A stretch of 64,000 nucleotides of DNA from a virus (lineage: Duplodnaviria > Heunggongvirae > Uroviricota > Caudoviricetes), in IMG/VR virus record IMGVR_UViG_3300002835_000064; one strand, 5' to 3'. The notes beneath the pieces are model-generated. The model saw only the letters and a list, made by a program, of their open reading frames with translations. It was not told the DNA's origin and did not search any database. The position numbers and the translations under genes were made by a program. How positions within the stretch are numbered: the first letter of the stretch is position 1; each line of letters opens with the position of its first letter. Below are positions 122 through 45,900 of this stretch, in pieces.

Positions 122-334
122 ATGGATTATGTTAATGTTCAATTTACTTCAGATGAATTTAATGATTTTATTTTAAGTATGTTTGCGGCTCATATGTTAA
201 AAGAAATTGATGTTCAAGCTGCGGTTAATAGATTGTTAGAATATATCGACGATCGTAGTGATATCGAAGCAGAAGAAGCTAATCAAGTAGTACTTAATTG
301 TGTAAAACAATTTGAATTAAGAACCGGTGTTTAA
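122..334 (+). CDS. hypothetical small acidic protein (70 aa)
   Basis: ORF with AAGGA Shine-Dalgarno 6 nt upstream; no recognisable motif. Confidence 0.4.
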   Translation: MDYVNVQFTSDEFNDFILSMFAAHMLKEIDVQAAVNRLLEYIDDRSDIEAEEANQVVLNCVKQFELRTGV

Positions 335-953
335 TATGCGAAAATTAAAAATTCATAGTGGCTCAGGCGCTAATTTTGAAAATGATTATGACTTAGAGGG
401 GCGGTTAATTGGATATCGAACAATCGTTGATGGTGATATTATTTTAGAAGAAAAATATCCGATCGATATGTCGGATAGTGCTAGATCAAGATTATTTTGG
501 AGTAATATTGACAGTCAAGGTGAATTTTTTCGTGCGTTTATTTACGAAGATGAACAAGGCGAACGAAACCCAATGGGGGCGACTAAAAAATTAGATGGTC
601 ATGAATGTATGTCGGATTATGACCTTAGTGGTAATTTAGTTAGTTATTCGGATTCGTTAGGAAATTACTTATTCCAAGAGTTCGATGCATTAAATCGATT
701 AATTTATATTGATGATAATGAAGGTGAAGTTATTTGGTATGAGTATAGTAGCGAAGATCTAAATGAACCCAGTAATGTTTCTATTCGCAATACAACTAAT
801 GATATATTAGAATACGATAAAGATGGTAATTGTATCTATATAAAATTAGCTACTGGTTACGAAATACATAAAACATATGACGATCAAGGGAATATATTAT
901 CATATCGAAATTCAGACGGAATTGAATTCTTTAATGAATATATAGATATTTAA
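327..953 (+). CDS. small YD-repeat (Rhs-type repeat) protein, 208 aa
   Basis: At least 5 spaced YD-x-x-G-x-L-h-x-Y motifs (DYDLEGRLIGY, DYDLSGNLVSY, EFDALNRLIYI, EYDKDGNCIYI, TYDDQGNILSY). Confidence 0.55.
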   Translation: MFNMRKLKIHSGSGANFENDYDLEGRLIGYRTIVDGDIILEEKYPIDMSDSARSRLFWSNIDSQGEFFRAFIYEDEQGERNPMGATKKLDGHECMSDYDLSGNLVSYSDSLGNYLFQEFDALNRLIYIDDNEGEVIWYEYSSEDLNEPSNVSIRNTTNDILEYDKDGNCIYIKLATGYEIHKTYDDQGNILSYRNSDGIEFFNEYIDI

Positions 954-5446: not shown

Positions 5447-5464
5447 ATAAAATTACTCTTAAAA

Positions 5465-7045: not shown

Positions 7046-7054
7046 TTAATTCGC

Positions 7055-20710: not shown

Positions 20711-20761
20711 CGGGAATAAATAATTCGATATTGTTGCGGTACTAACTGAGGGATCAAAATA

Positions 20762-23924: not shown

Positions 23925-25229
23925 TTATATTTCTAGCTCGGCTAGTTCTTTTTTATACATTTTAATACAATTAGTTTTTTCTAATGCTTGTATATCTTTT
24001 TCAATTCTTTCTATATTTTTATCTAGCTTAAATATATCATCTTTCGTTAAATGATACAAGCGTATATCTAACAAATCATTAATATGATTAAAATTATTTT
24101 CAGTTAATAATTGTTCTAATTCTTTTTTACTTTTACTTGAAAATAACTTACTATTTTCAATATACCAATTAATAAATCTACGCTTTTCCGATAACCAAAC
24201 TAATTCTTCGTTTAGTATTTCTAATAATTTAATTCTACGTTCTTCGTATTTCTCTAATCTAAATGCGACAAAATAATCAATAATATCCTGAACTTGTTTA
24301 AAAACTTTAATAAAGCCATCTTCCGTCCACGCAGTTAAATTTTGGGTATCCTTACCTATTAATTTAAATTTAGTTAATATTGCGTCATGCGGTAATTGAG
24401 TCGTTGTTCTAGGAACATTAAAAATATAATCGAATGATGATTCAGTTGACCTATCATCTACGTCTTTAATAAGACCTTGTTCCTGTAATTTAATACAGTG
24501 GGCTTTATAATCATCTTGATAAATGCCGATAGGTAATTCAGTAACTCTAATGGTCGTTGAATTTACTATTTCATAAACGCCTATATTTAAAACTTGATCA
24601 CCATTCATACTAATGGTTCCTTTAAAACCATTATACCAAGGCATTAATTGCTGCGGTTCTTTGCCCGATAACAAAGCTAATATATTTTCTTTTAATTCTA
24701 TTGGATTATATTTTAATATATGAGTCGCATAACCAGTTCCCATACCTCGCGCCCCATTTATTAATATATTTGGTAATATAGGTAAATAATAATCGGGTTC
24801 GATTGATTGCCCATCAGAATCTAAATGATTTAAAATAATATCATCTTCTTTTTTAAATATTTTTCTAAAATTATCAGTAAATTCAGTAAAAATATAACGA
24901 GGAGCCGATGACTCACTAGATAACCGGCTTCCGAATTGGCCATTTGGTTTAAAATAATTAATATTATTACTACCAGTATAATTCTGCGCTAAACCTACTA
25001 TAGTCTCGTTTAAACTGGCTTCGCCGTGATGGTAATCACTTACTTGGGATATATACCCAGAAACCTGAGCTACCTTAATTTCGCCCGCATTTTCACCACG
25101 TTTAATCATTCCGAAGATACATTTTCGTTGCGATGGTTTAAATCCATCAACGACTGAGGGAATAGAACGTATACAATCAGCAATAGAAAATTGCTTGAAT
25201 TCATTATCAAAAAAATCTTTAACTTTCAT
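23925..25229 (-). CDS. 52: DNA topoisomerase II medium subunit, T4 gp52 (GyrA-like cleavage-religation subunit)
   Basis: DGFKPSQRK motif and active-site region; 434 aa, the T4 gp52 size class. Confidence 0.85.
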   Translation of the reverse strand: MKVKDFFDNEFKQFSIADCIRSIPSVVDGFKPSQRKCIFGMIKRGENAGEIKVAQVSGYISQVSDYHHGEASLNETIVGLAQNYTGSNNINYFKPNGQFGSRLSSESSAPRYIFTEFTDNFRKIFKKEDDIILNHLDSDGQSIEPDYYLPILPNILINGARGMGTGYATHILKYNPIELKENILALLSGKEPQQLMPWYNGFKGTISMNGDQVLNIGVYEIVNSTTIRVTELPIGIYQDDYKAHCIKLQEQGLIKDVDDRSTESSFDYIFNVPRTTTQLPHDAILTKFKLIGKDTQNLTAWTEDGFIKVFKQVQDIIDYFVAFRLEKYEERRIKLLEILNEELVWLSEKRRFINWYIENSKLFSSKSKKELEQLLTENNFNHINDLLDIRLYHLTKDDIFKLDKNIERIEKDIQALEKTNCIKMYKKELAELEI

Positions 25230-25476
25230 CCGCTCTTTTTTCCTCTATTTGCTGTAAAAATTCGAGCAATTTATTATAATCGTCTTGTTCAAAATATGAC
25301 ATATCTCTAGCAACGTCATTTAAACACCCTAAAACATTATAACGCATAATTGCGCCAGATGTAAAGGTTAATGATATAGTCCCATTATCATTAACCGAAT
25401 ACGATCTAATATTATTAGTCCTAAATAAAACCGGATTCATTAATAATGAATACCGCTTCGATGTAAAATGATTCAT
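25219..25476 (-). CDS. small hypothetical protein (~85 aa) between genes 39 and 52; start reassigned to the ATG with GGAG RBS
   Basis: The first 47 codons of the tracked ORF are low-complexity I/V read-through. Confidence 0.4.
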   Translation of the reverse strand: MNHFTSKRYSLLMNPVLFRTNNIRSYSVNDNGTISLTFTSGAIMRYNVLGCLNDVARDMSYFEQDDYNKLLEFLQQIEEKRADES

Positions 25477-25659
25477 CTTATCTCCAACGATTACCGTAAT
25501 ATTGATAATGATGTTCATGTCTATGTATCGGGGTTGGTATATAATAATTATGATGATATTCAGTATAATTATTATAACCAGTATAACCCGGATGTGGATA
25601 ATATGTCGCACAACCACTTAATAAACCACACAATAATATAATTTTTTTCATAATGTTAC

Positions 25660-27546
25660 CTATTCGTCAGTGCCTAAAATGTTTAACCAATTTTTACGTT
25701 CGCCAGTTTTACCATTATCTTTACTAAATGCTAATTTAATCGCGTCCGCATCCGTTACATCGTCAATCTCATACTTAATTAAATTCTTATCGAAATTAGC
25801 TAAGTAAGTTTTAAAATCCGCTGCTGTACTAGTACCTAACCCCTTAAAATATTTCGATGTATATTTTTTAGTAGTTTTATTTTTCCATTTAATAAAATCT
25901 TGTTCTTCATAAAATTCAATTAACTCCTTACCGCAAGTTACTTTAATTAACGGCGTTTTAAATCTATGGATAACACCTAAATCAAATAACTCAGGCCAAA
26001 ATGTATGGATCATATTAATTAATAAACCGTTAATATGCAATCCATCTAAATCTTGATCGGTTAAAAAACATATTTTACCGTAACGCAATTGCTTTACATC
26101 AGTTATCTTTTCTCCGATTTTTAATCCAGTTATTGTTAATATATTCTGAAATTCTTCATTATCCATTAAATTTCTAGGTTTAACGGTACTTACATTAACT
26201 GGCTTACCTTTTAATGGAAAAATACCGTGCAATTGTGGGTCTCTAGCACTACTAACAGCCTTGGCTGCAGAATCTCCCTCAGTTAAAAATAAAATACATT
26301 TAGATCTATCTTTCTTTTCTAATGCATCATTTAATTTAATAATCTTACTAGGATCAACTTTATCCGTATTTTTATTTAATTTTCGCATTTCTGCTAATAA
26401 ATTAGCATTTGCTTTCGCTTCGGCCCAATCTAATATACTTTGAACAATAGATGACTTAATAATATTTTTAATAAACTTATCAGAAACTTCAAATGATGTT
26501 CCGAAATTTTTAATTTCAGTTATCATATCTTCTTTAGTCTGACTTGAATATCTAGGTTTAATAATATTACAATTAATAAACAAATTTAAATGATTTTTAA
26601 TCTCACTCGGTTTTATCTGAATCTTATGCTTCTTTTCAATAAACTCACGCAACTTAACTATAATTTGATCCGCTATATAACTAACATGTAACCCACCGAT
26701 AGTAGTTTCTGTACTATTTACAAATGAAACATGAGAAAATCCACCATCTGATTTGCTAATACCTACTTTCCAATTATCATTTTGATCGTAGATATATTCA
26801 TCTACGTACATCTTAATATAATCTTCGAAATTTTTAATATCTATTTTTTTATCATTAAAATAAATCTTTAATTGAGGATTACATCCAGCAACATCATAAA
26901 CCCGTTTTTCTATTTTACGAAAATCGCCGTCGGATAAATTTTCTAAATTTAATTTAGGATAATCTGGAATAAAAGTAATTTTAGTATAATGCTCTTTACT
27001 TTTCTTTATAATCGGAGTAGTCTTATCCCGACTATTATTTGTATGAGTCTGTAAAAATTTATTCTTACCATCAGCCGTATCGACTATAAATGAGGTCGAG
27101 AAAATAGAGGTTAATGCAGCACCTTCACCATTTTGACCAGTTAAAGTCGAATCCTCATCATCATTAAAATTACTACCAGCTCGCAATTCAAAAATCATCT
27201 CCGGAATATATTGATCATGCTCCGGATGTTTAACTACGACAATACCGCCATTATCATAAACCGATATAGCTCCGGTTGTTTTATCAACATTAACTTTAAT
27301 CGTATCTAAATGAGTCCCTGAATCAGTTTTTGAATAATCAACACTATTACTAATAATCTCATCGAATATTTTTAATAATGCTGGGCACCAAGTAAGTTCA
27401 TCTGATATCATCTTATGTTTATCATCGGCTATAGTATAAGATACAGCCGTATGCGGATTGATACTACCAATATATCTACCCGGTCTTAATAAGACGTGAG
27501 ATATCTCATCTAACTTTTTAAATTTTTGACTAATATGTGCTGTCAT
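25660..27546 (-). CDS. 39: DNA topoisomerase II large subunit, T4 gp39 family (GyrB-like), unsplit gp39+gp60 equivalent
   Basis: GHKL ATPase N-domain, Toprim FLTEGDSA, and DQDLDGLHINGLLIN motifs; 628 aa. Confidence 0.85.
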   Translation of the reverse strand: MTAHISQKFKKLDEISHVLLRPGRYIGSINPHTAVSYTIADDKHKMISDELTWCPALLKIFDEIISNSVDYSKTDSGTHLDTIKVNVDKTTGAISVYDNGGIVVVKHPEHDQYIPEMIFELRAGSNFNDDEDSTLTGQNGEGAALTSIFSTSFIVDTADGKNKFLQTHTNNSRDKTTPIIKKSKEHYTKITFIPDYPKLNLENLSDGDFRKIEKRVYDVAGCNPQLKIYFNDKKIDIKNFEDYIKMYVDEYIYDQNDNWKVGISKSDGGFSHVSFVNSTETTIGGLHVSYIADQIIVKLREFIEKKHKIQIKPSEIKNHLNLFINCNIIKPRYSSQTKEDMITEIKNFGTSFEVSDKFIKNIIKSSIVQSILDWAEAKANANLLAEMRKLNKNTDKVDPSKIIKLNDALEKKDRSKCILFLTEGDSAAKAVSSARDPQLHGIFPLKGKPVNVSTVKPRNLMDNEEFQNILTITGLKIGEKITDVKQLRYGKICFLTDQDLDGLHINGLLINMIHTFWPELFDLGVIHRFKTPLIKVTCGKELIEFYEEQDFIKWKNKTTKKYTSKYFKGLGTSTAADFKTYLANFDKNLIKYEIDDVTDADAIKLAFSKDNGKTGERKNWLNILGTDE

Positions 27547-27773
27547 ACGATATTTTTATAATTCCAAGTTATTTCATAATTAGTTGTATATATGATATAG
27601 CAATTTTGTAGTAAAAACAAGCATTAATTGTATTATGGTATTATTTTATAAAATTTCGGGAGAAAGCCAAGCATCAAGCCTATATATTATATTATAGTAA
27701 TGGTCTGGTTTATTTTGGGTTAACCTATTGTTTTATATAAAATTCAATTTATTTTTAAGGATATTCCGATGTT

Positions 27774-27789
27774 GGTATAAATATTTAAA
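27774..27789 (+). promoter_or_regulatory. T4-type late promoter, extended box GTATAAATATTTAAAT, about 28 nt upstream of ORF 27810
   Basis: TATAAATA at 27776-27783; an identical 16-mer recurs at 34841. Confidence 0.45.
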
Positions 27790-27809
27790 TTTGTAGGGTG
27801 TAGGTCGGT

Positions 27810-28457
27810 ATGAAACTTAATGAATTATTATTTGAAAACCCGCAATTGATTGACCCCATTGATTCGAAAAAATTTGTTAATGATCACGACCATAATCATA
27901 AATTATACGATACTTTGATTATGCAATCGCATCAATTAATTAAGCAGATCAATGATCATATTATATTAGTTCGAATCGATGCGAAACGAGGTAAAGATTT
28001 TAACTTCCAATATGTTGGATTAGATAATAAAAACGAACAAGTCTGTTTTTTATCTAGATGTGTGGTTAAAACCGATAAAATTTTAGGTAGATATGTTTTC
28101 CAAAATTTTTTATGGGTTAGCCCACAACATAAAAAAGAATTCCATGGTTGGCCTAGTAAATTAGTATTCGAGCAGTTATTACCTAAATACGGAACTATTA
28201 CCACTGATGAATTTCATACACCGAAGGGTATGAATTATTGGGCGAAATTAGTTAAACAAACTCATACCGAACATGATGGTGCATTTTATGTTTATCATTT
28301 TAATAAAAAACAAGAACAAATTCATTTGGTAAAAACAGTTCATCATTTAATTGAATTACAAAAAGAACATAAGATTTGGGATCACGGTCCAAGCGGAGCT
28401 CATCAATTAGTAGTTATATCTACTAAAAAATTACATCAGAAAAAACACAGTGGTTAA
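27810..28457 (+). CDS. hypothetical protein (215 aa), His-rich
   Basis: ORF immediately downstream of the late-promoter box. Confidence 0.5.
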   Translation: MKLNELLFENPQLIDPIDSKKFVNDHDHNHKLYDTLIMQSHQLIKQINDHIILVRIDAKRGKDFNFQYVGLDNKNEQVCFLSRCVVKTDKILGRYVFQNFLWVSPQHKKEFHGWPSKLVFEQLLPKYGTITTDEFHTPKGMNYWAKLVKQTHTEHDGAFYVYHFNKKQEQIHLVKTVHHLIELQKEHKIWDHGPSGAHQLVVISTKKLHQKKHSG

Positions 28458-28483
28458 CACTAATTTATAAGCGAGATTTTAAT

Positions 28484-30349
28484 ATGTTATTAAGTGAAGT
28501 TGTAACTAAAATGAGTAAGATCGGCGAAACGCCTGAAGGTGATGGTGTTTATAAGCATGAACCGATTATGCATGATATGGAAGATAATGGTAAGTTTGTA
28601 GCTGGTAGTAATTCCGATTTATCAACTATGGGATGTGAAAAACTAGAAGTTAATTATACAAAAGAAGAACGCGATTTCTTTAAGAATTTAGAGGATAATT
28701 TAAGAAAGCAACGTCAATCATTAGAAGCTGATGGTAAATTCGACGAAGCTAAAAAAATTAATTATAAAATGAAATCACCGCAACAAATAATTAAAGTATT
28801 TCATGCTTATCAATTATTTAAAAATCCATTAACTAGAGAAGAAATGTTAAAAACTCACGGGTTTATGTCTGCAGTAAAAGAACGCGATCCGAGACATTTA
28901 ATGGATAAGAAAGATATTCAATCTATCGTTGATCATAGCGTGACTAGATTAATTAATGCTATGAAAGAACCACCAGTTTTAAAAGGATTCGATAGAGCAG
29001 ATTTTAGTAAGGCGTATACCGATTTTATCCAACCATTTATGGAAACGGGCAAACAAGCAGATAAAAAAAGAAATAATATCATTATTGTCCCATTATCATC
29101 TAGTTCTAAATTAGTTAGTTCGTTCGCCCATACGCTTAGTGAAAGGTTAGGTGGAGCTCAAATTGAATCAGGTGCATTATTAAAAAATTCATGGCCCCGA
29201 TTATCCAAATGGACAACAACTATCAAACATGGGGATTTACTTAGATTACCATCTAATTTCCATATTAAAATGGTTGATGAGATGGATAATCATACTTATT
29301 CGCCAAATATTACTAAATTATTGCGTCAAATTAAAGATTTAATGAGAATTTTAGGTGATGCGGCGAGAAATGTTGCGGATGATGGTGAAGAAGTTGTTAA
29401 TGCGGCGACACCAACCGATAAATTAAAAGAATTGTTAATCGCGTTGCGTCATGCAATAACTGATGAATATATTGATTTAAAAGATCAAATTAATGCGAAG
29501 TTAAATGAATTAGCGACTTATAATAGAACTCATAAGTTAGATAGCGATTTAGCTATTAAACAACATAGACATACACCACAATATACAAAGATTATTAAAG
29601 ATATTGACGTTTTACGTAAAAAACGAGATTCACTACCTAAAGCGGATATTGCTATAACTAGACCATCAGGTAAAGAAACTATCCAATATCAAAAACAAGT
29701 TCATATCGTTAATATTCAAAGATTTGCTAAACATTATGATAGTTTACAACAAGCATATGAATATGCATTAATTAATTGGGAAGATGATCCGGATAATGCA
29801 GCTAAATTAAAAGCAGCTGAGGATTTAGAAGCTCAACTTAAATCATTATCGAATGAATATAATAAATCATTGGAAACATTATACGATGCGGTATTATCAA
29901 ACCCATTTAAAATTCATAATGCGTATGCTAGATCTGGTGGGGATCGTGGTAAAGGATATTATAGATTTCAAATATTACATGAAGATTATGCAGATAAATT
30001 AAACGGAAAAAGTATTATATTAGTTGATGATAATGTTGATACTGGTAAATCTATTATTGATGCAGTTAAATCTATGGCAGCGGTTGGAGTTATACCAGAA
30101 CGTATTATAGCAATGACGCCTCATAAATTTAATACTTCAGCTGAAAATACTAAGAAAACTGCGGCTTTACCTGCAGCTAGACGTGAAGAATTAGCTAATA
30201 TACGTAGTCAATTAGCTTCTAATGCGAGACAGTATAAAAACGAGAAATTACAAGCGAAAAAAACAGCACCTGATTATAATGAAAAGAAAGAAACATTCGG
30301 TCAGCATGTGGCAAGAACTGGTAAATTACCAGGACATGGTCTGTATTAA
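28484..30349 (+). CDS. 621-aa protein with type-I phosphoribosyltransferase (PRPP-binding) motif near the C-terminus and a large helical insertion
   Basis: GKSIILVDDNVDTGKSIIDAV fits the PRTase/Prs PRPP motif (h4-DD-x-x-D/T-T-G-x-S/T); an upstream NNIIIVPLSSSSKLVSS segment is a possible PP-loop region; ~300 aa lie between them. Confidence 0.5.
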   Translation: MLLSEVVTKMSKIGETPEGDGVYKHEPIMHDMEDNGKFVAGSNSDLSTMGCEKLEVNYTKEERDFFKNLEDNLRKQRQSLEADGKFDEAKKINYKMKSPQQIIKVFHAYQLFKNPLTREEMLKTHGFMSAVKERDPRHLMDKKDIQSIVDHSVTRLINAMKEPPVLKGFDRADFSKAYTDFIQPFMETGKQADKKRNNIIIVPLSSSSKLVSSFAHTLSERLGGAQIESGALLKNSWPRLSKWTTTIKHGDLLRLPSNFHIKMVDEMDNHTYSPNITKLLRQIKDLMRILGDAARNVADDGEEVVNAATPTDKLKELLIALRHAITDEYIDLKDQINAKLNELATYNRTHKLDSDLAIKQHRHTPQYTKIIKDIDVLRKKRDSLPKADIAITRPSGKETIQYQKQVHIVNIQRFAKHYDSLQQAYEYALINWEDDPDNAAKLKAAEDLEAQLKSLSNEYNKSLETLYDAVLSNPFKIHNAYARSGGDRGKGYYRFQILHEDYADKLNGKSIILVDDNVDTGKSIIDAVKSMAAVGVIPERIIAMTPHKFNTSAENTKKTAALPAARREELANIRSQLASNARQYKNEKLQAKKTAPDYNEKKETFGQHVARTGKLPGHGLY

Positions 30350-30368
30350 TAAAAAATAGTTGATTTTT

Positions 30369-30410
30369 AAGTTAAGAAGTGTTATACTTTAATACTTCTT
30401 AACTTTATTG
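30369..30410 (+). terminator. hairpin terminator after the PRTase-motif gene
   Basis: aagttaagaagt - 13 nt loop - acttcttaactt followed by T-rich sequence. Confidence 0.4.
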
Positions 30411-30421
30411 TTTTATAAATT

Positions 30422-30739
30422 ATGATACTTAACAATTATAAGTATTTTATAGCGCCGATCGAATCAATCGATTTAACATATCCCGAAGCTCTTATGTATT
30501 GCGCCTTTCTTAATATAGATGATTATTTTGATTGGTATATTCCGTCATTAAAAGAATGGCAGTTTATTTTACAAGAAAATAAAAATATATTATCGCAAGA
30601 TAGTTCATATTGGTCCGGATCTAATGCAGTTAGTCAAAAACGAATTTGGACAATATCTGAAAATTCTAAAAATATTAAAGTTAGACATATATTAGATAAA
30701 TGCAAAGTAAGAGCAATTCGGAAAGAATTATTATCTTGA
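30422..30739 (+). CDS. hypothetical protein (105 aa)
   Basis: ORF only. Confidence 0.4.
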   Translation: MILNNYKYFIAPIESIDLTYPEALMYCAFLNIDDYFDWYIPSLKEWQFILQENKNILSQDSSYWSGSNAVSQKRIWTISENSKNIKVRHILDKCKVRAIRKELLS

Positions 30740-30787
30740 TTTTATTATACTAATATAGTATACTATATCTTTTAACGAGAATATATT

Positions 30788-31228
30788 ATGGCAACTGAAC
30801 GATTAGATATATTTGAAGTTCTTCGAAATATTAATAAAAAGAATTATAATTACGTCCAAGATTTGGAAGATGACCAGAGAAAACAATTTTCTCCGTTCGT
30901 CGTAAATCAATGGTTGTGTTGTTCAAATAGCCCATTACAAATAGTATTAATGGACAAGTTAGTAAATCGACGATTCTTTAAATTATCAAGACATCCAAAT
31001 TTAATTTATAAATTATTCTGTATTACGGCAGTTGATAAAAATGCTAGATATAATTGGCTATTTAAAAAAGCCGAGAAAAGTGATGCGATAGATATTATTG
31101 CAAAATATCTAAATTGTTCTAGACGCGACGCTAGTAGATATAAAGATTCTTTTAGTCAGGATGATATAAAAGAAATGATTAAGATATTAGGATATCAACC
31201 ATCTGAAATTAAGAAATTAAAGGTTTAA
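30788..31228 (+). CDS. hypothetical protein (146 aa), possibly DNA-binding
   Basis: ORF only; basic C-terminal half. Confidence 0.4.
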   Translation: MATERLDIFEVLRNINKKNYNYVQDLEDDQRKQFSPFVVNQWLCCSNSPLQIVLMDKLVNRRFFKLSRHPNLIYKLFCITAVDKNARYNWLFKKAEKSDAIDIIAKYLNCSRRDASRYKDSFSQDDIKEMIKILGYQPSEIKKLKV

Positions 31229-31579: not shown

Positions 31580-32446
31580 TTGGAAAAATATTTTATGAAA
31601 AAGGTATTATTAGTATCGGCTATTTTATTAGTTTTAACTGGGTGTTCGAATGTTAATGTCGGGGAAGTCGGCATTAAAGTTCATTTATTGGGTGGTGATA
31701 AAGGTGTTGATTCGGAACAATTAGGACCCGGTAGATATTGGATTGGTGTGAATGAACAATTATATACTTTCCCAACCTTTATGCAGAATTATACCTGGAC
31801 TAAATCTAGAAGTGAAGGACGAGATGAAGATGAATCAATTACATTTCAGACAAAAGAAGGTTTATCAGTAAATGCGGATATTGGTATTACTTATACCTTA
31901 CAACCTGATAAAATTCCAGTTCTATTTCAAAAATATCGTAAAGGTATTGATGAAATTACGCATATCTACTTACGTAATTTAGTTCGTGATGCTATTAATA
32001 CGGAATCATCAACTAAACCAATTGAATCAGTTTACGGCGAAGGTAAAGCAGAATTAATTAAAGCTGCCGAAGGTCGTGTTCGAGTTGAGATTGAACCCTA
32101 CGGTATTCATTTAGATCATTTATCTTGGGTTGGTAATATTAGATTGCCAGAAACAGTTACTGATGCAATTGATGCGAAAATTTCAGCATCACAAATTGCA
32201 ATAACAAGACAAAATGAAATCGAAACTGCTAAAGCCGAAGCTCAAAAAGCAATTGCCGTTGCAGAAGGCGAAGCTAATGCTAGATTATTAGTTGCTGAAG
32301 CTGAAGCAAAAGCTATTCGATTAAAAGGTGAAGCGGTTCGTAATAATCCAGGTGTTGCAGAATTAAATGCTATCGAAAAATGGAATGGTGTTTTGCCGGT
32401 AACTATGTTACCAAATTCAACTTTACCATTGATTGGCGTTAAGTAA
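31580..32446 (+). CDS. SPFH/band-7 (HflC/prohibitin-like) lipoprotein
   Basis: Signal peptide plus lipobox LLVLTGCS; SPFH-like core followed by an Ala/Glu-rich coiled-coil (AKAEAQKAIAVAEGEANARLLVAEAEAKAIRLKGEA) as in HflK/C and prohibitins. Confidence 0.7.
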   Translation: MEKYFMKKVLLVSAILLVLTGCSNVNVGEVGIKVHLLGGDKGVDSEQLGPGRYWIGVNEQLYTFPTFMQNYTWTKSRSEGRDEDESITFQTKEGLSVNADIGITYTLQPDKIPVLFQKYRKGIDEITHIYLRNLVRDAINTESSTKPIESVYGEGKAELIKAAEGRVRVEIEPYGIHLDHLSWVGNIRLPETVTDAIDAKISASQIAITRQNEIETAKAEAQKAIAVAEGEANARLLVAEAEAKAIRLKGEAVRNNPGVAELNAIEKWNGVLPVTMLPNSTLPLIGVK

Positions 32447-33832: not shown

Positions 33833-34498
33833 TTGAAAATTGTTGTTTTAACTGGAGCTGGTATTAGTGCGGAATCTGGAATTTCTACATTTCGTGATTC
33901 GAATGGATTATGGGAAAATCATAATATTGAAGAAATCGCAACTCCTTGGGGTTGGGAAATGAATCCAGATTTAGTCTTAGAGTTTTATAATCAAAGACGA
34001 AGACAATTACATGAAGTAACTCCTAATTTAGCGCATTATGCATTAGCAGAATTAGAAAAACATCATGATGTCGTTGTTATAACTCAGAATGTTGATGATT
34101 TGCATGAACGTGCTGGTTCGACTAATATTATTCATTTGCACGGCGAATTATTAAAAGCTAGAGATGAAGTAACTGATGATGTTTATGATAATCCGGGTGA
34201 TATTAATTTAGGTGATTTTAGTCCGAATGGTCATCAATTAAGACCCCATATCGTTTGGTTTTATGAGCCGGTTCCGTTATTAGATAAAGCAGTTGACGAA
34301 GTTCGTAATGCAGATCATTTAGTTGTTATTGGAACTAGTTTGGTTGTTTACCCGGCGGCGAGTCTTTTATTTTTTACACCTCCCGATTGTAAGATTACTA
34401 TTATTGATAAATCAATACCTGAAACAGCAATTAAAGTTGATTCATTAGAAGGATCGGCTTGCGAAAAAGTACCTCAGTTTGTAAATAGTATTATCTAA
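33833..34498 (+). CDS. Sir2-family (sirtuin) NAD-dependent enzyme without a zinc-ribbon module
   Basis: GAGISAESGISTFRDSNGLW (Rossmann/NAD motif), ITQNVDDLHERAGS, and catalytic IIHLHGEL; no Cys pairs where sirtuins carry C-x2-C...C-x2-C. Confidence 0.8.
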   Translation: MKIVVLTGAGISAESGISTFRDSNGLWENHNIEEIATPWGWEMNPDLVLEFYNQRRRQLHEVTPNLAHYALAELEKHHDVVVITQNVDDLHERAGSTNIIHLHGELLKARDEVTDDVYDNPGDINLGDFSPNGHQLRPHIVWFYEPVPLLDKAVDEVRNADHLVVIGTSLVVYPAASLLFFTPPDCKITIIDKSIPETAIKVDSLEGSACEKVPQFVNSII

Positions 34499-38266: not shown

Positions 38267-41200
38267 ATGTTAGTAGATGGGTTTAAATTCATTGATGGTT
38301 CCACTTCGGTTAATTTTGTATTACCGGTAATGTCTAAACTCGACCGTTTAGCTATGACCTCGTTAGATATGGGTGAAATTGTTTACCAATATGATGGTGA
38401 TGCTACTGCTGAAAGTGGGTTATACTTATGGTCTACCACTGCAGGTTGGGAACGATTTGGTTCAGGAACTTTAGATATATCTAAAATGCAAACCGGTAGA
38501 TTGCTACCTAGCTTTAATTCACCAATTTCTGGTGATATGGAATCTTCGGTAGATGGAACTAATTTAAAATTAGAGTTAAAATCGCATACTATCCCAGATG
38601 GTGATTTACAAGCGGATGGCTTAGCTGAATATAATTTCGTTAAAGTAAATACTAAAGGTTTAGTTGTTAGTGGTGCAAAATATACGGATATTAGACGAAC
38701 TGGTATTACGAATGTTTACACTGCAGATGAAATTAATACTAAACTTGCCGGTTACTTATCAACAAGCCAAAAAAATGTTGATGGTGGTTATGTAGCTTGC
38801 GTTAATGGTAAAATTGATCCAACCATGTTACCAGTTTATTCATCTGGTGGTGATATTATTTCAGTCGGTGGAACTTTACGATTAATTTCTAGAGGTATTG
38901 ATGCATCTAAAAAATACGATCGTGTTATTTTAAATGATGCTGGGGTCGTAGTTAGCGCAGAACAATATCACTCTATTTCTGAAGTTGCACCAGATGCAGT
39001 TACTGCGGCTGAGTTTAATGTTTTATCTAATAGTGCAATTAAAACGACACAAAAAAATCAACCAAATGGTTACGTTTCATTAGAGCCAAATGGTAAAATT
39101 AATGCATCATTTTTACCGAGTATTACGACTAATAATATTCAAGTTATTGCATTAGACGCGGATCTTATTAATGTAGTAAGTCAGGTTGGTGATGTTGTTC
39201 TTACTTTAGATCAACGTAAAACTTATATTAGACGACATGTTTCATCTCCAGTTGCGATAGGTGATTGGGTTGAATTATTGCAACCGGTTAGCCAAGTTAG
39301 CTCAATTAATAATAAAGCCGGAACTATATCGCGTTTAGATTATGATGATATCAATAATTTAGCAGAATCAGCTCGAGTTGATACAACAAATGCTAGTTTA
39401 ATTTCTAAAGGAACGTTATCTGTTGGTAGATTACCTCTATTTTGGGGTGATGTTGAATCAGTCGCCGGTAGTAATGAATTGACATTAAAACAAAAAAGTT
39501 TACTTCCAGGCTGGTATAATTCAGTTCATGTCGATAATAAAGGTTTAGTTTATGAAGGTGAACTTAAATCAACTATCGCCGATCTTGGTATTAAAGACGT
39601 TTATAATAAAACCGAAATTGACTCACAATCATTAGCATTCGAACGTTTATATAATAAAAATAGAGCAAATGGTTATGCTGGGTTAAATGCAGACGGCTTA
39701 ATTAATACAAATCAATTACCACCTTTATCAATTACTAATGTTCATTTAATTGATGTTAAATTAGATGCAGTTAATTTAACTAATGCTAAAAAAGGTGATG
39801 TTGCTATTGCAAATACTGATAAAAAATCATATATTTTGATTGATAGTGATTATGCAAATCAATATAATTGGCAACCATTATTAACCCCAGAAACTGGAGT
39901 TATTTCAATTAATGGTAAAAAAGGTAGTTTGCGCTATTTGGAAGCTGCTGATATTAATGGTTTATCTCGATCAGCAATAGTTGATACGACAAATGCATCT
40001 AATATTACATCTGGAAAATTAATTCCTGCAGTGTTACCTGATTTTACTGGCGATGTTATTTCATCTAACGGTACCGTTTTAAAATTAACTGATAAATTTT
40101 TAGTTGATCCAGCTGTTAAATTTAATTGGGTTCGAGTCGGTAAAGATGGTCGTGTTTATGACGGCGGTGCGTACAATACTATTAGTGAAGCTTGTGCTGA
40201 TGCCGTATCAACAACCGAATTATCAAATCAATTGCAAAATTATGTTTTAGCAAAAGATTATAATTTACCAGGAACTTACGCTCGATTAGGCAATGACGGT
40301 AAAATTGATATTCATTTATTACCTGATTTAGCATTAACTGATACTTTTGTTATTAGTGATGATATTTCAACTTATGATGGATATGTCGTCGGTAATACAG
40401 CAAGCGATCTTAGTTTACAATCAGTTCTAAAAAAATTAAATGGCTTTTCACCATCTAATTTAACTGGTCATAATTACGGAACTACCATTCCAAATAAAGG
40501 TGACGTTGTTATTGCTCAAGCCGCATCAAGAACTTTCATCTTAGCTGATAATTCATTATATGACGGCGCTTGGAAAGAAATGTTATCTCCTATGGATGGG
40601 GTATTTACTATTGGGGCTGGGGCTGATTTACAAAAAGGTTATATTAATAAAATTAAAGTTGCTAATATTGATGGTTTAGCTCCATCTGCTACTATTAATA
40701 CAACAAACGCTACTAATATCACAACTGGAACTTTAGCATTTGAAAGATTACCAGTTTTTGATAGCGAAACTGTCGCATTTAATAGAAATAATGTAGCAAT
40801 GTCGCCTGATTTCGTTCATAGCGATGTTTCATCTTATTCTAGTAAATATCCAAATTTATTAATATTAAATGATGTTTCTTCATTGAATAATATAGACGCA
40901 TCAAAAACGTATACTAAAGTTAAATTTAATAAAAAAGGTTTAATCGTCGATGCATCAAACCCAACAACATTAAATGGTTATGATATTACCGATGCTATTT
41001 GGCAATCACAAATTCATAATACAACCATTAAACGTAATATTGCTGGTAATCCATTAGATGTGAATAATGTTATTATTCCAACTGATGCAAATGGTAAAAT
41101 AGCAACTGGTGATTTGCATAAAGCGGTTATATTAACTAATGGATCAACTCCATTAAAAGGTATTGCGGAATTAGATGCAAATAACTACATTATGTTAGAT

Positions 41201-42802
41201 CAAATTCCATTCTCAGTTGGTGCTCATGTTGTTTGGAGTGATATTCCAGATCGCCCTCGCGGAACTTCGGTTGATTATAATGTCGGTTCACAATCATCAT
41301 CTAAAGGCGTATTTGCATTAGACGGAACTACCATCGATCCAGTTACTAATTTAGCTATTAAACCAGAAGTTGTTTTAGGTAATGATTATCGTTTAACTGA
41401 CGATCGTTATCCAACCGCACATAAACATGCATGGGATGATATTAATAATGGTATAGTAAATACTGATGCTGCATATAGAACTTTACCTGAATTAATGGAT
41501 GGTAAATTAATTAATGGTGTTTTAACTGGCGGTAAAGCAGATAAGTCAGAATTGCGAGATGCTATTGAAAATATTACTGGTGTCTATACCTATATAGATG
41601 AAAATGCAGCAGACGGTTCAACTTCAACAGTTCCAGCTTTGGGTAATTATGATACTTTAGCTAGATTGTACGGTTGGATTATGGGTAAAGTAAAAGAAGT
41701 TGTTATTGATAATAATAGCGATATTTTAACTACTCAACTTGATTTATCAGTAAAAGCACCATTTACATTATTCGTCAAACATGATGATAATGATCCAGAT
41801 CAAAACAATTGGGCGTTATATAGAGTTTTTAAAATTAAAACCGTCGGCTCTATTAGTACTATCGAAAGTTTAAATGATATAACTAAAGTAACTGATAATA
41901 GTTTATATACCGCATTATCAGATCAAACATTTAAAGAAAAATATAATACTTTAACAGGTTGGAATACTGATAGTAATCATAAACGTATCGAAGTAACTGC
42001 AATGGCCGGTGATGCGAATATTGCGATTACAGATGGTGAATATTATAAATGGTATATTAGTACATTATCAGCCAAAAAACGTCCAGTATTTGAAGATTGG
42101 GCTAAAGCACCTTATTTTGAATCAACTACAACCGTTGCTGGTGAAGCACCACTTAAAGTTGCATCTAAAGTAAAAGTCGATAATTTTAATACTGATTTAA
42201 TTAACGGTGTTCAAGTCGGACCAACCCCAACTGCTGAAAATTTAGTGTTAGTAACTAAAGCTCCAGTTGCTGGTCAAACTATTACTTCAGAATGGAAAGC
42301 TCATATTAATGGCGGTGAGAATTTTACATCAGGAACAGTAAATCATGTTCCTTATGTTAGTGCTGCATATACTATGAATTCTATGACTGGCGTTACATAT
42401 AATTCAACTGATGATGTATTAACTATCGCAAAATCAGAATTGACTTATACTAAGTTTAAAGGTTATAGTGAAACTGTTATTAAAACCGCGGCTAATACTT
42501 TAACAATTGATTTAACTGCAGCTACGGTATTTAAATTAAATGCGAATTCCGATAATATTACTATCGCATTCCATTCTAATTTTACAATGACAATGGCGGC
42601 CGGTAGATCATTTACTATTATTCTTAAATATGGTAACTATCCAAACGGTAATACAATAACTTGGCCATCTCAAGTTATTTGGACTGAAAATAATACCAGA
42701 CCAACACCGTCTGGCGCTAACGCAACTGATATTTTTAATTTTATTTGTGATGGTGATTATGTTTACGGTAGTATTTCAGGTCAGTTGTATAATGCAAACT
42801 AA
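38267..42802 (+). CDS. long tail fibre protein (1511 aa)
   Basis: N-terminal domain shared with the fibres at 53350 and 54962; recurring modules (VDTTNAS..I..G.L....LP.F.GDV.S..G...L.L.); R-x-TD-D-R-x-P-x-x-H-K-H motif (YRLTDDRYPTAHKHAWDDI). Confidence 0.7.
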   Translation: MLVDGFKFIDGSTSVNFVLPVMSKLDRLAMTSLDMGEIVYQYDGDATAESGLYLWSTTAGWERFGSGTLDISKMQTGRLLPSFNSPISGDMESSVDGTNLKLELKSHTIPDGDLQADGLAEYNFVKVNTKGLVVSGAKYTDIRRTGITNVYTADEINTKLAGYLSTSQKNVDGGYVACVNGKIDPTMLPVYSSGGDIISVGGTLRLISRGIDASKKYDRVILNDAGVVVSAEQYHSISEVAPDAVTAAEFNVLSNSAIKTTQKNQPNGYVSLEPNGKINASFLPSITTNNIQVIALDADLINVVSQVGDVVLTLDQRKTYIRRHVSSPVAIGDWVELLQPVSQVSSINNKAGTISRLDYDDINNLAESARVDTTNASLISKGTLSVGRLPLFWGDVESVAGSNELTLKQKSLLPGWYNSVHVDNKGLVYEGELKSTIADLGIKDVYNKTEIDSQSLAFERLYNKNRANGYAGLNADGLINTNQLPPLSITNVHLIDVKLDAVNLTNAKKGDVAIANTDKKSYILIDSDYANQYNWQPLLTPETGVISINGKKGSLRYLEAADINGLSRSAIVDTTNASNITSGKLIPAVLPDFTGDVISSNGTVLKLTDKFLVDPAVKFNWVRVGKDGRVYDGGAYNTISEACADAVSTTELSNQLQNYVLAKDYNLPGTYARLGNDGKIDIHLLPDLALTDTFVISDDISTYDGYVVGNTASDLSLQSVLKKLNGFSPSNLTGHNYGTTIPNKGDVVIAQAASRTFILADNSLYDGAWKEMLSPMDGVFTIGAGADLQKGYINKIKVANIDGLAPSATINTTNATNITTGTLAFERLPVFDSETVAFNRNNVAMSPDFVHSDVSSYSSKYPNLLILNDVSSLNNIDASKTYTKVKFNKKGLIVDASNPTTLNGYDITDAIWQSQIHNTTIKRNIAGNPLDVNNVIIPTDANGKIATGDLHKAVILTNGSTPLKGIAELDANNYIMLDQIPFSVGAHVVWSDIPDRPRGTSVDYNVGSQSSSKGVFALDGTTIDPVTNLAIKPEVVLGNDYRLTDDRYPTAHKHAWDDINNGIVNTDAAYRTLPELMDGKLINGVLTGGKADKSELRDAIENITGVYTYIDENAADGSTSTVPALGNYDTLARLYGWIMGKVKEVVIDNNSDILTTQLDLSVKAPFTLFVKHDDNDPDQNNWALYRVFKIKTVGSISTIESLNDITKVTDNSLYTALSDQTFKEKYNTLTGWNTDSNHKRIEVTAMAGDANIAITDGEYYKWYISTLSAKKRPVFEDWAKAPYFESTTTVAGEAPLKVASKVKVDNFNTDLINGVQVGPTPTAENLVLVTKAPVAGQTITSEWKAHINGGENFTSGTVNHVPYVSAAYTMNSMTGVTYNSTDDVLTIAKSELTYTKFKGYSETVIKTAANTLTIDLTAATVFKLNANSDNITIAFHSNFTMTMAAGRSFTIILKYGNYPNGNTITWPSQVIWTENNTRPTPSGANATDIFNFICDGDYVYGSISGQLYNAN

Positions 42803-42941: not shown

Positions 42942-45900
42942 ATGTTTATATCTAAACCCCTATTAAATACTAGATTATTTACTGCCGCCACTATATTATT
43001 ACCATCAGATCCGTTACCGGCGGTTGTAGCTTCTGTTTTTTCGTATTCGCCTATAGATACATTAACGGTTAGAGGCGGAACTAAATATCGGGCAGATAAT
43101 GGAATACATCCATATCGATATAAATTAGTTGGATCTAATGATGTTGGTATTACTATCGATGAGTTTACTGGTGCAATAACAGGAACTATATCTCGAATTA
43201 ATGCTAAATTTTTAAATATAACATTAAGATTAGAAGTCGCGGATTTCCATAATATTCGAGCTAATTTTAATGATCCTATTGTTAATTTAGGAACAAAAAA
43301 ATATTGCACTATCGATATTAAAGTTTCATGGCCTGCCATAGTCGTTACTACACCAGCAAATAAAGCAACATTAAATAAAAATATGGATGATACTGTTAGT
43401 TTCAATCCATTTACTTATGCTGACGGTCATTATGATATAGTCGGTGGTGCAAGTGCGGGTGGGACTTTTGCTGATGCCGATTTTAAATATTATTTCGACT
43501 CGGAAAGTTTACAATTAGCGTTTCCCGAAGCAGTCCACGGTTCAGCTTTTTTTAATACTATAACCGAAACTTCGTTCGGTGATTTAATTTTAAATCCAGA
43601 TACTGGTGAAATTACTGGGCGATTAAATCATTATTTTAATCCTATGTTTAATCATACAGCCGGAACGAAGAATATGACGTTACCGGTATTCGTTCGAGAT
43701 AAATTTAGAAATAGCAGTAATGTTATTAACGTTCAATTTAATTTAACTTTAGAGCCGATTGCGATTATACCTGCACCACCTATTGATATTCATGTTACGG
43801 ATGGTAACCCAACTGATATATCTATACCGATAACTAATGGTAACGGTAATGGTGGTGTTGGGCCTTTTGATTATACATTTAATGATAATAGATTAACTGA
43901 TGAAGGTTTTAGAATTGTAACCGGAGATGATGGTGTTACTCGATTAGTAAGAGATGATGCTAGTTCTGGAGGTACTGGCGGATCAGGAGGTACTGGTGGA
44001 TCAGGAGGTACTGGTGGATCGGGAGGTACTGGTGGATCAGGAGGTACTGGTGGATCAGGAGGTACTGGTGGATCAGGTGGATCAGGTGGTACTGGAGGAA
44101 CTGGTGGATCAGGTGGATCAGGTGGTACTGGAGGAACTGGTGGATCTGGAGGAACTGGTGGATCAGGAGGTACTGGCGGAACTGGTGGAACTGGCGGAAC
44201 TAGTTCGACTATAACTGTTACCGACGGAGCTGGTCAAACCACAACTATAACGATTTGGGTTGAAGTCGTACCTGATATCGTATTAACAGCAACTAATCAA
44301 ACTATTATATTAGTAGTAAATGATCCATTAAGTTATTATGATGATAATTCTAAATCATATTATAACAAATATGTTTTAGATCCGTTTAATGGCACGACGG
44401 GTGGGTATCCAGTAAGTACCGCCGGCGGAGTTAGTGTTTATAAATCATATACTAGTTCGAATGTTTCTGTCCCGATCGGTTTAACCACTGGTATAGTAAC
44501 TAGAACATCATCGTTTGCAAATCCTAGCACCGATGGTTCGACTAAAAGTATTTTTACATTAACTGATAATTATGGGTTTACTAAAACTATCACCCATACA
44601 TATTTAATTTATCCAGCATTAGCCGCTTCGGTCGTTACTAGTTTACCATTAAAGGGTAATAATACGCAGTATAGAACTAAATCATTTTATAATGAATCAT
44701 CATTAGCTATATTCGAACCAATTACAGTAACAGCCGGTTCTGGTTCATATGTTTATCATATAAAAAGTACGACTGACGGTGCTATTATAAACGGAACTAC
44801 AACCGATACAACCGACAAATATCAATTAGATATTAGAACTGGCGAATTATCATCAATTACGCAAGTTACTGGCGTCGGTCAAAAATTAATTGAAATTGAA
44901 GTTACCGATACTATCACTAAACGGGTAGTTAATGGATTATTTGTTCAACTATCCGTCGATTATAAACCATTTATTGTTGTTGATAACCCGGTCACGATAC
45001 CGGCGACCGAAACTATTCGAGGAAGTGCGTCTACTTATACTCCGAATACTATAACTAGTGGTAATGGTTCTTATACTTGGACCGTATCGGTCGAATCAAC
45101 GAATTCTCATAATACGACAGATTATGGTAATGTTTCTATCGATGCTAGTGGTATTGTTACTTATACTCCACCAATAACGTTACCGTCGGATATAAGAACT
45201 AATCCATCGGTTAATATAACAGTTACAGTTACTGATGTCGCATTAAGTGATTTACCGTCCGGAACACATACATATACATTTACCAGACCATTAGCATTAC
45301 CGGCAAATACTCCAGGAACTATTATATTAACTGGAGCTATTTCGGGTGCATATTATTCAGATACTGCAATTACTGCATCACTATCTGATTTCGATGATGT
45401 TGTTGGTAATGTTATTTGGTCTTTAATTCCATCTAATAATGCGGCACCGACTATAAATCAAACATTAGATAATGCATCAAGCGTTACTTACAATTCTAGT
45501 GTCGGGACTGACGTTACAGTAACCGCGACATATACCGATACCTTAGCTTCTAATCAAAGAGCTCAAACAACATTTAATATAAGACAAAGTTCAACCAAAA
45601 TAACAGATTTACCGACTGACGGTCCGTTCATAGATTATCCAGTTCCGCCGGGTATTATATCGATTGATGTCATCGTAAATGGTGGCGGTGGTGGTGGCGG
45701 TGGCTGGGATTTATTAACCGGAGGTGATGGTTGCGATGGTGATTCTATCACTGCCACTTTCGATGTTAATGTCGGTGAAAATCTACAAATTTATATTGGT
45801 GCTGGTGGTGCTGGCGGTACAGTTGTATACGACCAATTCCATTGGGATCAAATCAATAGAATACCGAATGATAAATTACCAAATATTATAAATCCAGCTA

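Follow-up and report, generated by a model that had tools for sequence, protein, structure and literature searches.

Organization of the locus

The stretch of DNA analyzed here (IMG/VR virus record IMGVR_UViG_3300002835_000064, Caudoviricetes; 64,000 nucleotides, called the window below) encodes on its plus strand, at positions 28484..30349 with the stop codon included, a ComF-like protein of 621 amino acids (aa) that we assign with high confidence to the type-I phosphoribosyltransferase (PRTase) fold. The whole gene is a single ATG-started open reading frame (ORF). The segment NNIIIVPLSSSSKLV at aa 197-211 (29072..29116, plus strand) forms in the structural model the core strand β1 and the pyrophosphate (PPi) loop, and the equivalent segment of a short relative, P0020, aligns to the PRTase profile PF00156. 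The segment IILVDDNVDTGKSI at aa 511-524 (30014..30055, plus strand) is the phosphoribosyl pyrophosphate (PRPP) loop, with the acidic pair D515-D516, the residue N517, which is a family-specific invariant, and the phosphate-binding residues T520-G521-x-S523. An earlier annotation made from the DNA letters only, here called the sequence-only reading, had drawn attention to the wide separation of the two motifs and to the position of the PRPP loop near the C-terminus. Both observations are accurate: from NNIIIVPLSSSSKLV to IILVDDNVDTGKSI there are 314 residues within one ORF, and IILVDDNVDTGKSI begins approximately 110 residues ahead of the end of the protein. The spacing from β1 to β3 is 311 residues, as compared to approximately 60-80 residues in classical type-I PRTases.

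The protein starts with a family-specific region (aa 1-117; 28484..28834), which opens with a conserved MLLxE[IV] peptide. This is followed by the N-terminal half of the PRTase core (aa 118-258; 28835..29257), a helical-bundle insertion in the flexible-loop segment between β2 and β3 (aa 259-478; 29258..29917), the C-terminal half of the core (aa 479-552; 29918..30139) and a basic helical C-terminal tail (aa 553-621; 30140..30346), all on the plus strand. The core halves were delimited by alignment and model and the tail, which has an isoelectric point (pI) of 10.0, by the model. The N-terminal core half is basic (pI 9.8) and holds K132 and R134 (in SAVKERD), β1, the LSSSS PPi loop with S206, β2 with K234 and a β-hairpin. 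The C-terminal half holds the block RGxYxxQ (488-496), β3, the PRPP loop, a helix (522-533) and β4 with P538 and H547. Among long-class relatives the core halves show 30-42% identity, with the C-terminal half (42%) as the most conserved segment of all; the insertion has a lower identity (16%) than either core half, and the tail is lower still (13%). The number of residues after the DDN motif ranges from 38 to 341 across the family, so that the tail is variable in length. The whole protein contains one cysteine (C51), and the family members have 0-2 cysteines within the first 120 residues, so that there is no zinc finger.

A frameshift or a fusion of two genes was considered and rejected, as three independent contigs, near-identical in sequence, all carry the single ORF, and relatives of approximately 30% identity align with it collinearly over residues 41-620. 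A comparison with a 99%-identical copy (L001) revealed 68 codon differences, 63 of them synonymous and 5 non-synonymous; the whole ORF is therefore a functional coding sequence under strong purifying selection. The insertion accounts for 17 of the synonymous and 3 of the non-synonymous differences, the latter being conservative changes. An intein or mobile-element origin of the insertion was also rejected, since it has no recognizable domain, is purely helical and is under purifying selection.

A phage protein family with an insertion of variable length

An exhaustive HMMER scan of 1.84 billion representative sequences yielded 45 distant relatives with E <= 0.001, of which eight reached E <= 1e-30. 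Word-indexed homologue searches, with the single protein or with an alignment of 36 sequences, retrieved three near-identical copies and nothing more; the exhaustive scan was thus needed to reveal the family. The residue conservation described below is that of the 36-sequence family alignment. The long relatives (563-836 aa) are collinear with the window protein over residues ~41-620, and in many relatives of 275-400 aa the match is split into two stretches. With the exception of one fragment named "predicted phosphoribosyltransferase", the database name of the relatives is "hypothetical protein".

Residues K132, S206, D515, D516 and N517 are invariant, R134 is present in at least 90% of the members as part of the block DAxKxR, and K234, P538 and H547 are near-invariant. 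Further conserved blocks are the N-terminal MLLxE[IV], VxVPLxSSS (with S206), GAFxK (with K234) and FxIK, and in the C-terminal half RGxYxxQ, IxLVDDNxxSGxT (with D515, D516 and N517) and PK...PH (with P538 and H547). Depending on the member, 96 to 330 residues separate the VPLSSS block from the DDN block. Measured between two conserved anchors, the variable segment has a length of 8-13 aa in 3 members, 38-94 aa in 22 members and 162-240 aa in 11 members, and of 219 aa in the window protein. The "300-aa gap" is therefore a lineage-variable insertion within one conserved domain. This agrees with the first of the two architectures put forward in the sequence-only reading, a PRTase core with a large inserted helical domain, as the two halves lie 8-13 residues apart in some relatives and ~220 residues apart here.

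As to the question posed in the sequence-only reading, whether related phages conserve the architecture, this holds for uncultured phages only; among the 50,697 GenBank phage records there was no relative. A tblastn search of these records with the window protein, four family members and the product of the adjacent 215-aa ORF (described below) gave no match. The family hidden Markov model (HMM) was also applied to the surroundings of the topoisomerase II genes in Xanthomonas phage BUDD and to a T4 internal-protein region, and detected no relative in either. A pattern scan of IMG/VR found nothing, the alignment being too divergent for a pattern search. We conclude that the proteins constitute a previously unannotated, small and phage-restricted family of uncultured T4-like and jumbo phages.

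Two features of the C-termini may be added. The peptide [KH]LPG[HQ]GL closes the window protein (aa 606-621; 30300-30346) as well as P0004, the closest of its distant relatives (33% identity), in each case after an otherwise poorly conserved basic tail; it could be a short docking motif. In the member P0024 (L009 43-1914), whose insertion is short, the C-terminus is extended by ~290 aa that contain repeated HTH_23-like helix-turn-helix (HTH) motifs (27.6 bits versus a gathering score of 24.6), which hints at DNA binding. The contig is a single one of 2 kb and the fusion is present in P0024 only, for which reason it was rejected as a general feature of the family.

Predicted structure and site of the insertion

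AlphaFold2, run on the 36-sequence alignment, produced a confident model (predicted local distance difference test, pLDDT, 86.5; predicted template modelling score, pTM, 0.86) with a PRTase fold, which was the outcome of the structure prediction that the sequence-only reading had proposed as a check. The N-terminal region is modelled with β strands at 8-15, 21-27, 50-55 and 102-112 and a helix at 60-82. In the N-terminal half of the core, strand 199-203 (IIIVP) is followed by the LSSSS loop, a helix (209-221), strand 232-234 and a β-hairpin (243-253). The C-terminal half consists of short elements (488-506), strand 510-514 (IILVD), the PRPP loop with its complete signature (IILV-D515-D516-N-V-D-T520-G521-K-S523), a helix (522-533) and a strand (540-550), after which come the C-terminal helices (553-612). 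Thus, the core is predicted to be intact, with β1, PPi loop, helix, β2, flexible-loop segment, β3, PRPP loop, helix and β4 in this order. The candidate nucleotide-binding strand of the sequence-only reading, NNIIIVPLSSSS, is indeed the first core strand with the PPi loop of the PRTase core. The model displays the defining fold of the type-I PRTase superfamily, a parallel β-sheet with helices on its flanks, and the closest solved relative is ComF. A Foldseek search of BFVD gave nothing at E <= 0.001 and no comparable viral structure.

The region between the two motifs was predicted to be almost entirely α-helical, as the sequence-only reading had supposed. The helices of the insertion, at 274-296, 310-349, 355-361, 365-382, 400-430 and 437-472 within a helical stretch of residues 259-472, form a packed antiparallel bundle. 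In ComFC, a β strand at residues 85-89 is followed by the PPi loop (89-100), a strand at 113-115, the flexible loop (120-144), a strand at 153-157 and the PRPP loop (157-166) (PMC9005727). As the element order in both models matches this layout, we infer that the insertion occupies the flexible-loop segment between β2 and β3, an assignment made from the order of elements and not from a residue-level superposition. The spacing from β2 to β3 is ~38 residues in ComFC, ~63 in P0020 and ~276 in the window protein. The flexible-loop insertion varies among lineages: some members have none, most have a single hairpin, and the window protein has a bundle of ~220 aa. The suggestion that a coiled-coil or "hood" domain had been inserted can thus be refined: the insertion lies between β2 and β3 and not at the classical N-terminal "hood" position.

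Profile comparisons and family thresholds

The profile matches of the window protein are weak. PF00156 matched residues 505-556 only, with 22.7 bits and E 6.7e-5, which is below the gathering score of 26.3 bits, and the profiles PRTase-CE, UPRTase and PRTase_2 matched the same PRPP-loop stretch. Searches of PDB sequences with the window protein and with two family profiles showed nothing beyond the PRPP loop and were not significant for the window protein. Because the PF00156 match is weak and local and the PDB search not significant, the PRPP-loop motif alone is insufficient for an assignment. The relatives provide the wider match. In P0020, which is naturally free of the insertion, positions 16-108 of PF00156 align to residues 145-276 (E 1.2e-5, 25.1 bits), spanning both the VPLASSS block and the DDN loop. 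PF00156 thereby covers both halves of the core in this short relative, as expected for a PRTase core with an insertion, and the similarity extends beyond the 14-residue string, a restriction to which would have counted as refutation in the sequence-only reading, since the family alignment and the P0020 profile alignment cover both motifs. The best members score 25.1-25.2 bits with PF00156, and 18 of the 36 reach E <= 0.01, all of them below 26.3 bits. PRTase-CE (PF24390) spans both halves in P0018 and in a construct of the window protein from which residues 259-477 were spliced out; the scores were 18.0 bits for the window protein and 19.9 bits for the spliced construct, as compared to a gathering score of 27. 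Among the members scanned, PF24390 scores ranged from 12.7 to 20.4 bits, all below 27, with 11 of 36 members at E <= 0.01.

More specific models gave a similar result. The NCBIfam models for comF, Prs and every salvage PRTase aligned to the PRPP loop only, with 12-23 bits versus cut-offs of 107-656; TIGR00201 (ComF) obtained 13.6-16.4 bits in this loop versus a cut-off of 233.55, and the cut-off of TIGR01251 (Prs), 113 bits, was not reached. The PADLOC model for ShosT (PDLC03962) matched P0046 over residues 102-291 (E 5e-6), a stretch that includes both halves of the core. It did not match the window protein, for which the only hit in this comparison was PRTase_III-A over the PRPP loop (E 2e-4). 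PHROGs gave no significant match for the window protein; of 35 members, 8 had a weak match to phrog_16932 and 6 to phrog_8417, two profiles of unknown function. Thus, the protein has a type-I PRTase fold, yet lies outside ComF, PF00156, PRTase-CE, ShosT and Prs by the criteria of those families.

Expression signals

The gene is preceded by a 215-aa ORF (27810..28457, plus strand) that matches phrog_1349, of unknown function, with E 6e-12 and ends 26 nt before it. An octamer, TATAAATA, which is the T4 late-promoter consensus, is located 26 nt upstream of the ATG of this ORF (27776..27783, plus strand). A terminator-like hairpin with a 16-pair stem and a T-rich tail begins 20 nt after the stop codon of the PRTase-like gene (30369..30415, with the hairpin at 30369-30405; plus strand). 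It is the sole terminator-like site in 27400-30900, a count that is not above the shuffled expectation. The two ORFs are probably co-transcribed.

Analysis of the whole window showed that TATAAATA is depleted approximately 7-fold, with 4 copies versus 27.7 +/- 5 expected. The core 7-mer ATAAATA is present in 23 copies, 18 of which are intergenic, and is found 19-53 nt upstream of the genes for the gp23-like capsid protein and the gp21-like protease, of five large ORFs that flank them (unannotated and presumed to be structural), of PhoH and of the 215-aa ORF. A control 7-mer, CTAAATA, has 21 copies that are mostly coding and show no such upstream placement. Examples are the sites on the minus strand at 1785, 10255, 20222 and 22167, and on the plus strand at 20716, 22182, 27777, 34843, 35921, 37461, 42882, 49564 and 53300. 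Most copies of the 7-mer lie 19-53 nt upstream of gene starts on the same strand. It thus behaves as the core of a late promoter, and its positions map the late transcription units along the phage DNA.

In relatives, a perfect TATAAATA is positioned 32 nt (L003) and 22 nt (L005) upstream of the family gene, and versions with one mismatch are found upstream of the family gene in L008 and L002. The motif also precedes the prohead protease gene in L003 and L008. As the same late-promoter motif precedes both head genes and family genes, late transcription of the family genes seems indicated in at least three lineages.

A shared N-terminal peptide

The N-terminus of the family is unusually conserved, with L3 in at least 90% of the members and LxE at positions 3-5 in 27 of 36. 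The product of the 215-aa ORF begins with a similar sequence, MKLNELLFE, and its orthologues beside topoisomerase II in L003 and L008 start with MKLNDILMEV and MKLSEVSILHE. The shared peptide follows the pattern M-[KL]-L-x-[ED]-[ILV]-[ILV], which contains LxE (window 27810-27840 and 28484-28510; L003 6256 and 8001; L008 5939). Only the two adjacent ORFs fit the pattern among the 391 ATG-started ORFs of the window, and the same type of pair was found among the 142 ATG starts of L003. Aligning the 215-aa protein to the family with hhalign revealed no similarity past the first 13 residues, and shared ancestry of this protein and the N-terminal domain of the family was rejected on that ground.

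In T4, the prohead protease removes the capsid-targeting sequence at L/I-x-E sites. The T4 internal proteins IPII and IPIII begin with MKTYQEFIAE, to which the family peptide bears a loose resemblance. The internal proteins of T4 are diverse defence proteins whose sole common feature is the capsid-targeting sequence (PMC3012670). By comparison with these sequences, the shared peptide may be a capsid-targeting or prohead-protease signal. We treat packaging as a hypothesis, because the likeness to the T4 sequence is only loose and the pattern was drawn up once the family was known.

Genomic context

The window derives from a T4-like phage, as it encodes a gp23 major capsid protein, a Peptidase_S77 prohead protease, PhoH, a clamp-loader ATPase and topoisomerase II, the latter with both its large and its medium subunit. 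These marker genes show 42-52% identity to large phages of Ralstonia, Xanthomonas and Pseudomonas. The PRTase-like gene, located after the 215-aa ORF in a region of phage DNA metabolism, is divergent from the adjoining gene for the topoisomerase II large subunit. Two loci with relatives of ~30% identity, L003 and L008, are syntenic, with the order topoisomerase II, an ORF of ~200 aa, NADAR, the family gene, a clamp-loader-like gene and Sir2, continued by gp23 in L003. The members of the mid and short classes are encoded on other large-phage contigs, one of 322 kb, with the order NAD-ligase, dihydrofolate reductase (DHFR), (Acb1), family gene, (ClpP-like), topoisomerase II subunits and then NT5C and ribonucleotide reductase (RNR). 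Every context is that of a phage, usually beside topoisomerase II, and no ComFA-like gene was seen adjacent; in the window, there was no DprA-like gene among the annotated neighbours.

Each of the three syntenic loci has a Sir2-family gene ~3.5 kb downstream of the gene for the PRTase-like protein. The coordinates of the Sir2-family and NAD-related genes are 33833-34498 (plus strand) in the window, 6927-7463 and 12454-13125 in L003, and 6618-7154 and 13206-13871 in L008. In L003 and L008, though not in the window, the ADP-ribose-processing NADAR gene lies just ahead of the family gene. A set of NAD and ADP-ribose genes thus recurs around a phosphoribosyl-binding protein, and any functional link between them is a conjecture.

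Several further observations concern the surrounding genes. In the mid-class loci, a gene for a ClpP/NfeD-like protease follows the family gene by 55-60 nt (L002 9142-9804, L006 8950-9762, L007 2726-3538, and L005). The window has no ClpP/NfeD-like gene at that place, and its counterpart is a gene for an SPFH/Band-7 lipoprotein at 31580-32446 (TTG start). Proteins of the SPFH and NfeD types commonly occur as partners. The topoisomerase II large subunit, a single ORF of 628 aa in the window (25660-27546), is split in L008 (2125-5688, minus strand) into a HATPase/GyrB part of 596 aa and a TOPRIM_C part of 182 aa by an ORF of 414 aa without a Pfam match, an arrangement that recalls the gene 39/60 split of T4 or a mobile insertion. 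An unannotated ORF of 132 aa (25219-25617) lies between the genes for the large and medium subunits in the window. Just past the hairpin, an ORF of 105 aa (30422-30739, plus strand) shows sub-threshold similarity both to PF07603, the Lcl C-terminal domain (25.1 versus 34.9 bits), and to the C-terminus of a PHROG profile of 583 positions and unknown function. At the left end of the window, an ORF of 208 aa (327-953, plus strand) has an RHS-repeat match. Two very large ORFs, of 1511 aa (38267-42802) and 1820 aa (42942-48404), are located on the plus strand downstream of the head genes. The GC content has two local maxima of 0.41-0.42 at 4001-6000 and 46001-48000, within large ORFs, and is mostly 0.29-0.39 in the window.

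Possible functions

As judged from the alignment, the residue classes for Mg-PRPP or a nucleoside 5'-monophosphate are conserved (D515-D516, T520-G521-x-S523 and S206), and we infer that the canonical site of the protein would bind PRPP or a nucleotide. With a net charge of -3 and a pI of 6.3, the insertion is close to neutral, on account of which a role as a DNA-binding arm was rejected; binding of DNA by the bundle itself is unlikely. Since the bundle sprouts from the loop that closes the site, is neutral and is well packed, it most likely serves as a rigid arm or lid, through which the binding of the ligand would be coupled to a partner. Alternatively, it could gate the access of a large acceptor. 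By analogy with the binding of single-stranded DNA (ssDNA) by ComFC, the basic half of the core and the tail could contact nucleic acid. The protein would then have a ligand-binding and possibly catalytic role connected with how phage DNA is handled, either late in infection or when DNA next enters a host. We favour such a DNA-linked role over housekeeping base salvage.

For the complete statement, a ComF-like PRTase-fold family member with a DNA-linked ligand-binding role, we consider the arguments evenly balanced, and the functional part taken separately is tentative, with the balance tipped somewhat against it. Several results weigh on the negative side. The functional part is built on analogy, and the insertion is not basic, which leaves the idea of DNA binding a conjecture. 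In several loci the gene is linked to those for thymidylate synthase, DHFR, RNR and NT5C, which would suit a small-molecule nucleotide enzyme just as well. The similarity to any PRTase is below every curated threshold and, for the window protein, is confined to ~50 residues. The flexible-loop assignment is derived from the order of secondary-structure elements. Finally, no late motif was found upstream of the jumbo-phage member P0020.

The protein could instead be a true small-molecule PRTase with a new acceptor, which converts a base or amine and PRPP to a nucleotide or releases PPi, and thereby supplies or alters the nucleotide pool of the phage. The bundle would then be an oligomerization or regulatory appendage only. 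We consider this rather unlikely, although all PRPP-binding elements are invariant, several loci contain genes for thymidylate synthase, DHFR, NAD-ligase, NT5C and RNR, and PRTase-like effectors of host defence act through PRPP (PMC12746101; PMC12961424). The equivalog and subfamily models reach at best 14-23 bits versus cut-offs of 107-656, insertions of as many as 240 residues break up the catalytic flexible loop, and the closest fold, ComF, has no known catalysis (PMC9005727). Furthermore, the late-promoter placement is atypical for nucleotide-supply genes. In T4, such genes are early or middle. More distant from the observations is a Prs-like pyrophosphokinase, such as the Adps of the NARP1 phage pathway for NAD+ reconstitution described in 10.1101/2024.02.11.579819. 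The best NCBIfam matches of the PRPP loop are to ribose-phosphate diphosphokinase, and genes for Sir2 (here) and NADAR (L003 and L008) are found within a few kb in the three syntenic loci. These matches score 20-23 bits versus cut-offs of 113-438, and the ORFs scanned included no NAMPT/Namat-like partner. The window protein has a single PRT-type domain, as compared to the tandem pair of Prs and Adps. We consider this explanation very improbable. The second architecture of the sequence-only reading, in which a PRTase fragment at the C-terminus is joined to an unrelated N-terminal domain, would account for the restriction of the profile matches of the window protein to residues 505-556. It is hardly credible and was rejected, as PF00156 extends across both halves of P0020, short relatives bring the halves within ~96 residues, and a fragment with β3 and β4 alone could not form the five-stranded core.

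A further explanation overlaps with the DNA-linked role. The protein would be made late, packaged in the head, injected with the DNA and act on the next host, for example as a counter-defence effector, in parallel to Alt and the internal proteins of T4 and to the PRTase domains fused to MuF. The MLLxE peptide, common to the family and the 215-aa protein, would serve as the capsid-targeting and prohead-protease (LxE) signal. The late motif shared by the gp23-like gene, the gp21-like gene and the large flanking genes, and present also before the family genes of L003 and L005, is consistent with this idea. So are the limitation of the N-terminal pattern to two adjacent ORFs in the window and likewise in L003, the hhalign result that this peptide is the sole similarity between the two proteins, the Peptidase_S77 prohead protease in the window, the MKTYQEFIAE start of IPII and IPIII with the capsid-targeting sequence as the only feature shared by the internal proteins (PMC3012670), and the fusion of phage PRTase domains to MuF (PMC5512222). 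However, the pattern is post hoc and the T4 resemblance loose, cleavage after E5 would remove 5 residues as compared to 10-19 in T4, and the N-terminus may be a plain part of the fold. PhoH also has the late motif, which shows that late does not imply structural, and the jumbo-phage member has none. We regard packaging as a minority possibility. The most extended version of it is a new class of proteins, made late, targeted to the capsid by LxE and injected, in which a ComF-like PRPP or nucleotide module with a coiled-coil arm acts at DNA entry; this is speculative and we think it unlikely. If true, such proteins may protect or hand over the incoming DNA or neutralize PRPP-centred defences (ShosTA, retron type III-A), would be the counterpart in T4-like phages of the MuF-fused PRTase domains of polyvalent proteins, and would offer a first functional handle on the role of ComF-type PRTase domains. 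Should the protein prove to be packaged and injected, it would represent a novel type of effector delivered by phages.

Neither the architecture of the family nor its apparent late expression was expected. ComF-type PRTase domains are essential for natural transformation and recur in ShosT, in retron effectors and in polyvalent phage proteins, and nobody knows their physiological ligand or catalysis. The family adds a phage-encoded, apparently late-expressed branch to this fold, in which the active-site loop has been repeatedly remodelled. The series of insertion lengths, from none through a hairpin to a bundle of 220 residues, around an invariant PRPP site is a natural experiment on the role of the flexible loop. 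A recognizable family has also been gained among the "hypothetical" genes in the replication regions of T4-like and jumbo phages.

Comparison with known systems

The window protein shares its core fold and strand order with the classical type-I PRTases of PF00156 (the PRTase domain of PurF, HGXPRT, APRT, OPRT and UPRT), and the PRPP-loop signature IILVDDNVDTGKS closely resembles, for example, the loop of HGPRT. In the classical loop, the residue after the acidic pair is usually hydrophobic. The family differs by an invariant asparagine at this position and by extra N- and C-terminal regions.

ShosT and the effectors of type III-A retrons resemble the family in being non-canonical PRTase folds of phage-host conflict with extended PPi and flexible loops. 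These host PRTase-like effectors (ShosT and retron III-A3) act through the binding or depletion of PRPP (PMC12961424; PMC12746101). The partner of ShosT is DprA-like, echoing the link between ComF and DprA. ShosT differs in being a host-encoded toxin with an N-terminal pyrophosphatase domain, for which no equivalent was identified in the window protein. The retron type III-A effectors have a winged-HTH domain and retron partners, neither of which applies to the window protein, and the matches to both groups are weak.

Closer in origin are the solo and polyvalent PRTases encoded by phages, plasmids and other mobile elements, which Iyer et al. (2017) described as a ComFC-related clade with a conserved basic residue after strand 2 and an "enigmatic" role (PMC5512222). 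They proposed that the clade makes or senses a nucleotide at DNA entry, and they found phage PRTase domains fused to MuF in polyvalent proteins (PMC5512222). In contrast to these, the window family has no fusion to MuF or to another domain, and a helical insertion and an N-terminal region such as those seen here are not described for the clade. PF24390 (PRTase-CE), the best sequence match across the two halves, may correspond to this clade; a literature search on the name PRTase-CE returned no paper.

The most similar protein of known structure is ComFC/ComF, which functions in bacterial DNA uptake (Helicobacter pylori ComF, PDB 7p0h; TIGR00201). The sequence identity is 12%, ComFC has a 4-Cys zinc finger that the window protein lacks, and it is encoded in a competence operon with ComFA instead of in a phage genome. 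The family has its own N-terminal region of ~117 aa and its basic helical C-terminal tail, and the flexible loop of 25 residues in ComFC is replaced by the helical bundle of 220 aa. ComFC binds PRPP, nucleoside monophosphates and ssDNA and has no known catalytic activity (PMC9005727). Both proteins have a single type-I PRT domain with all three loops, a PPi loop that is longer than the canonical one, N-terminal strands that extend the sheet, and a biological context that is related to DNA.

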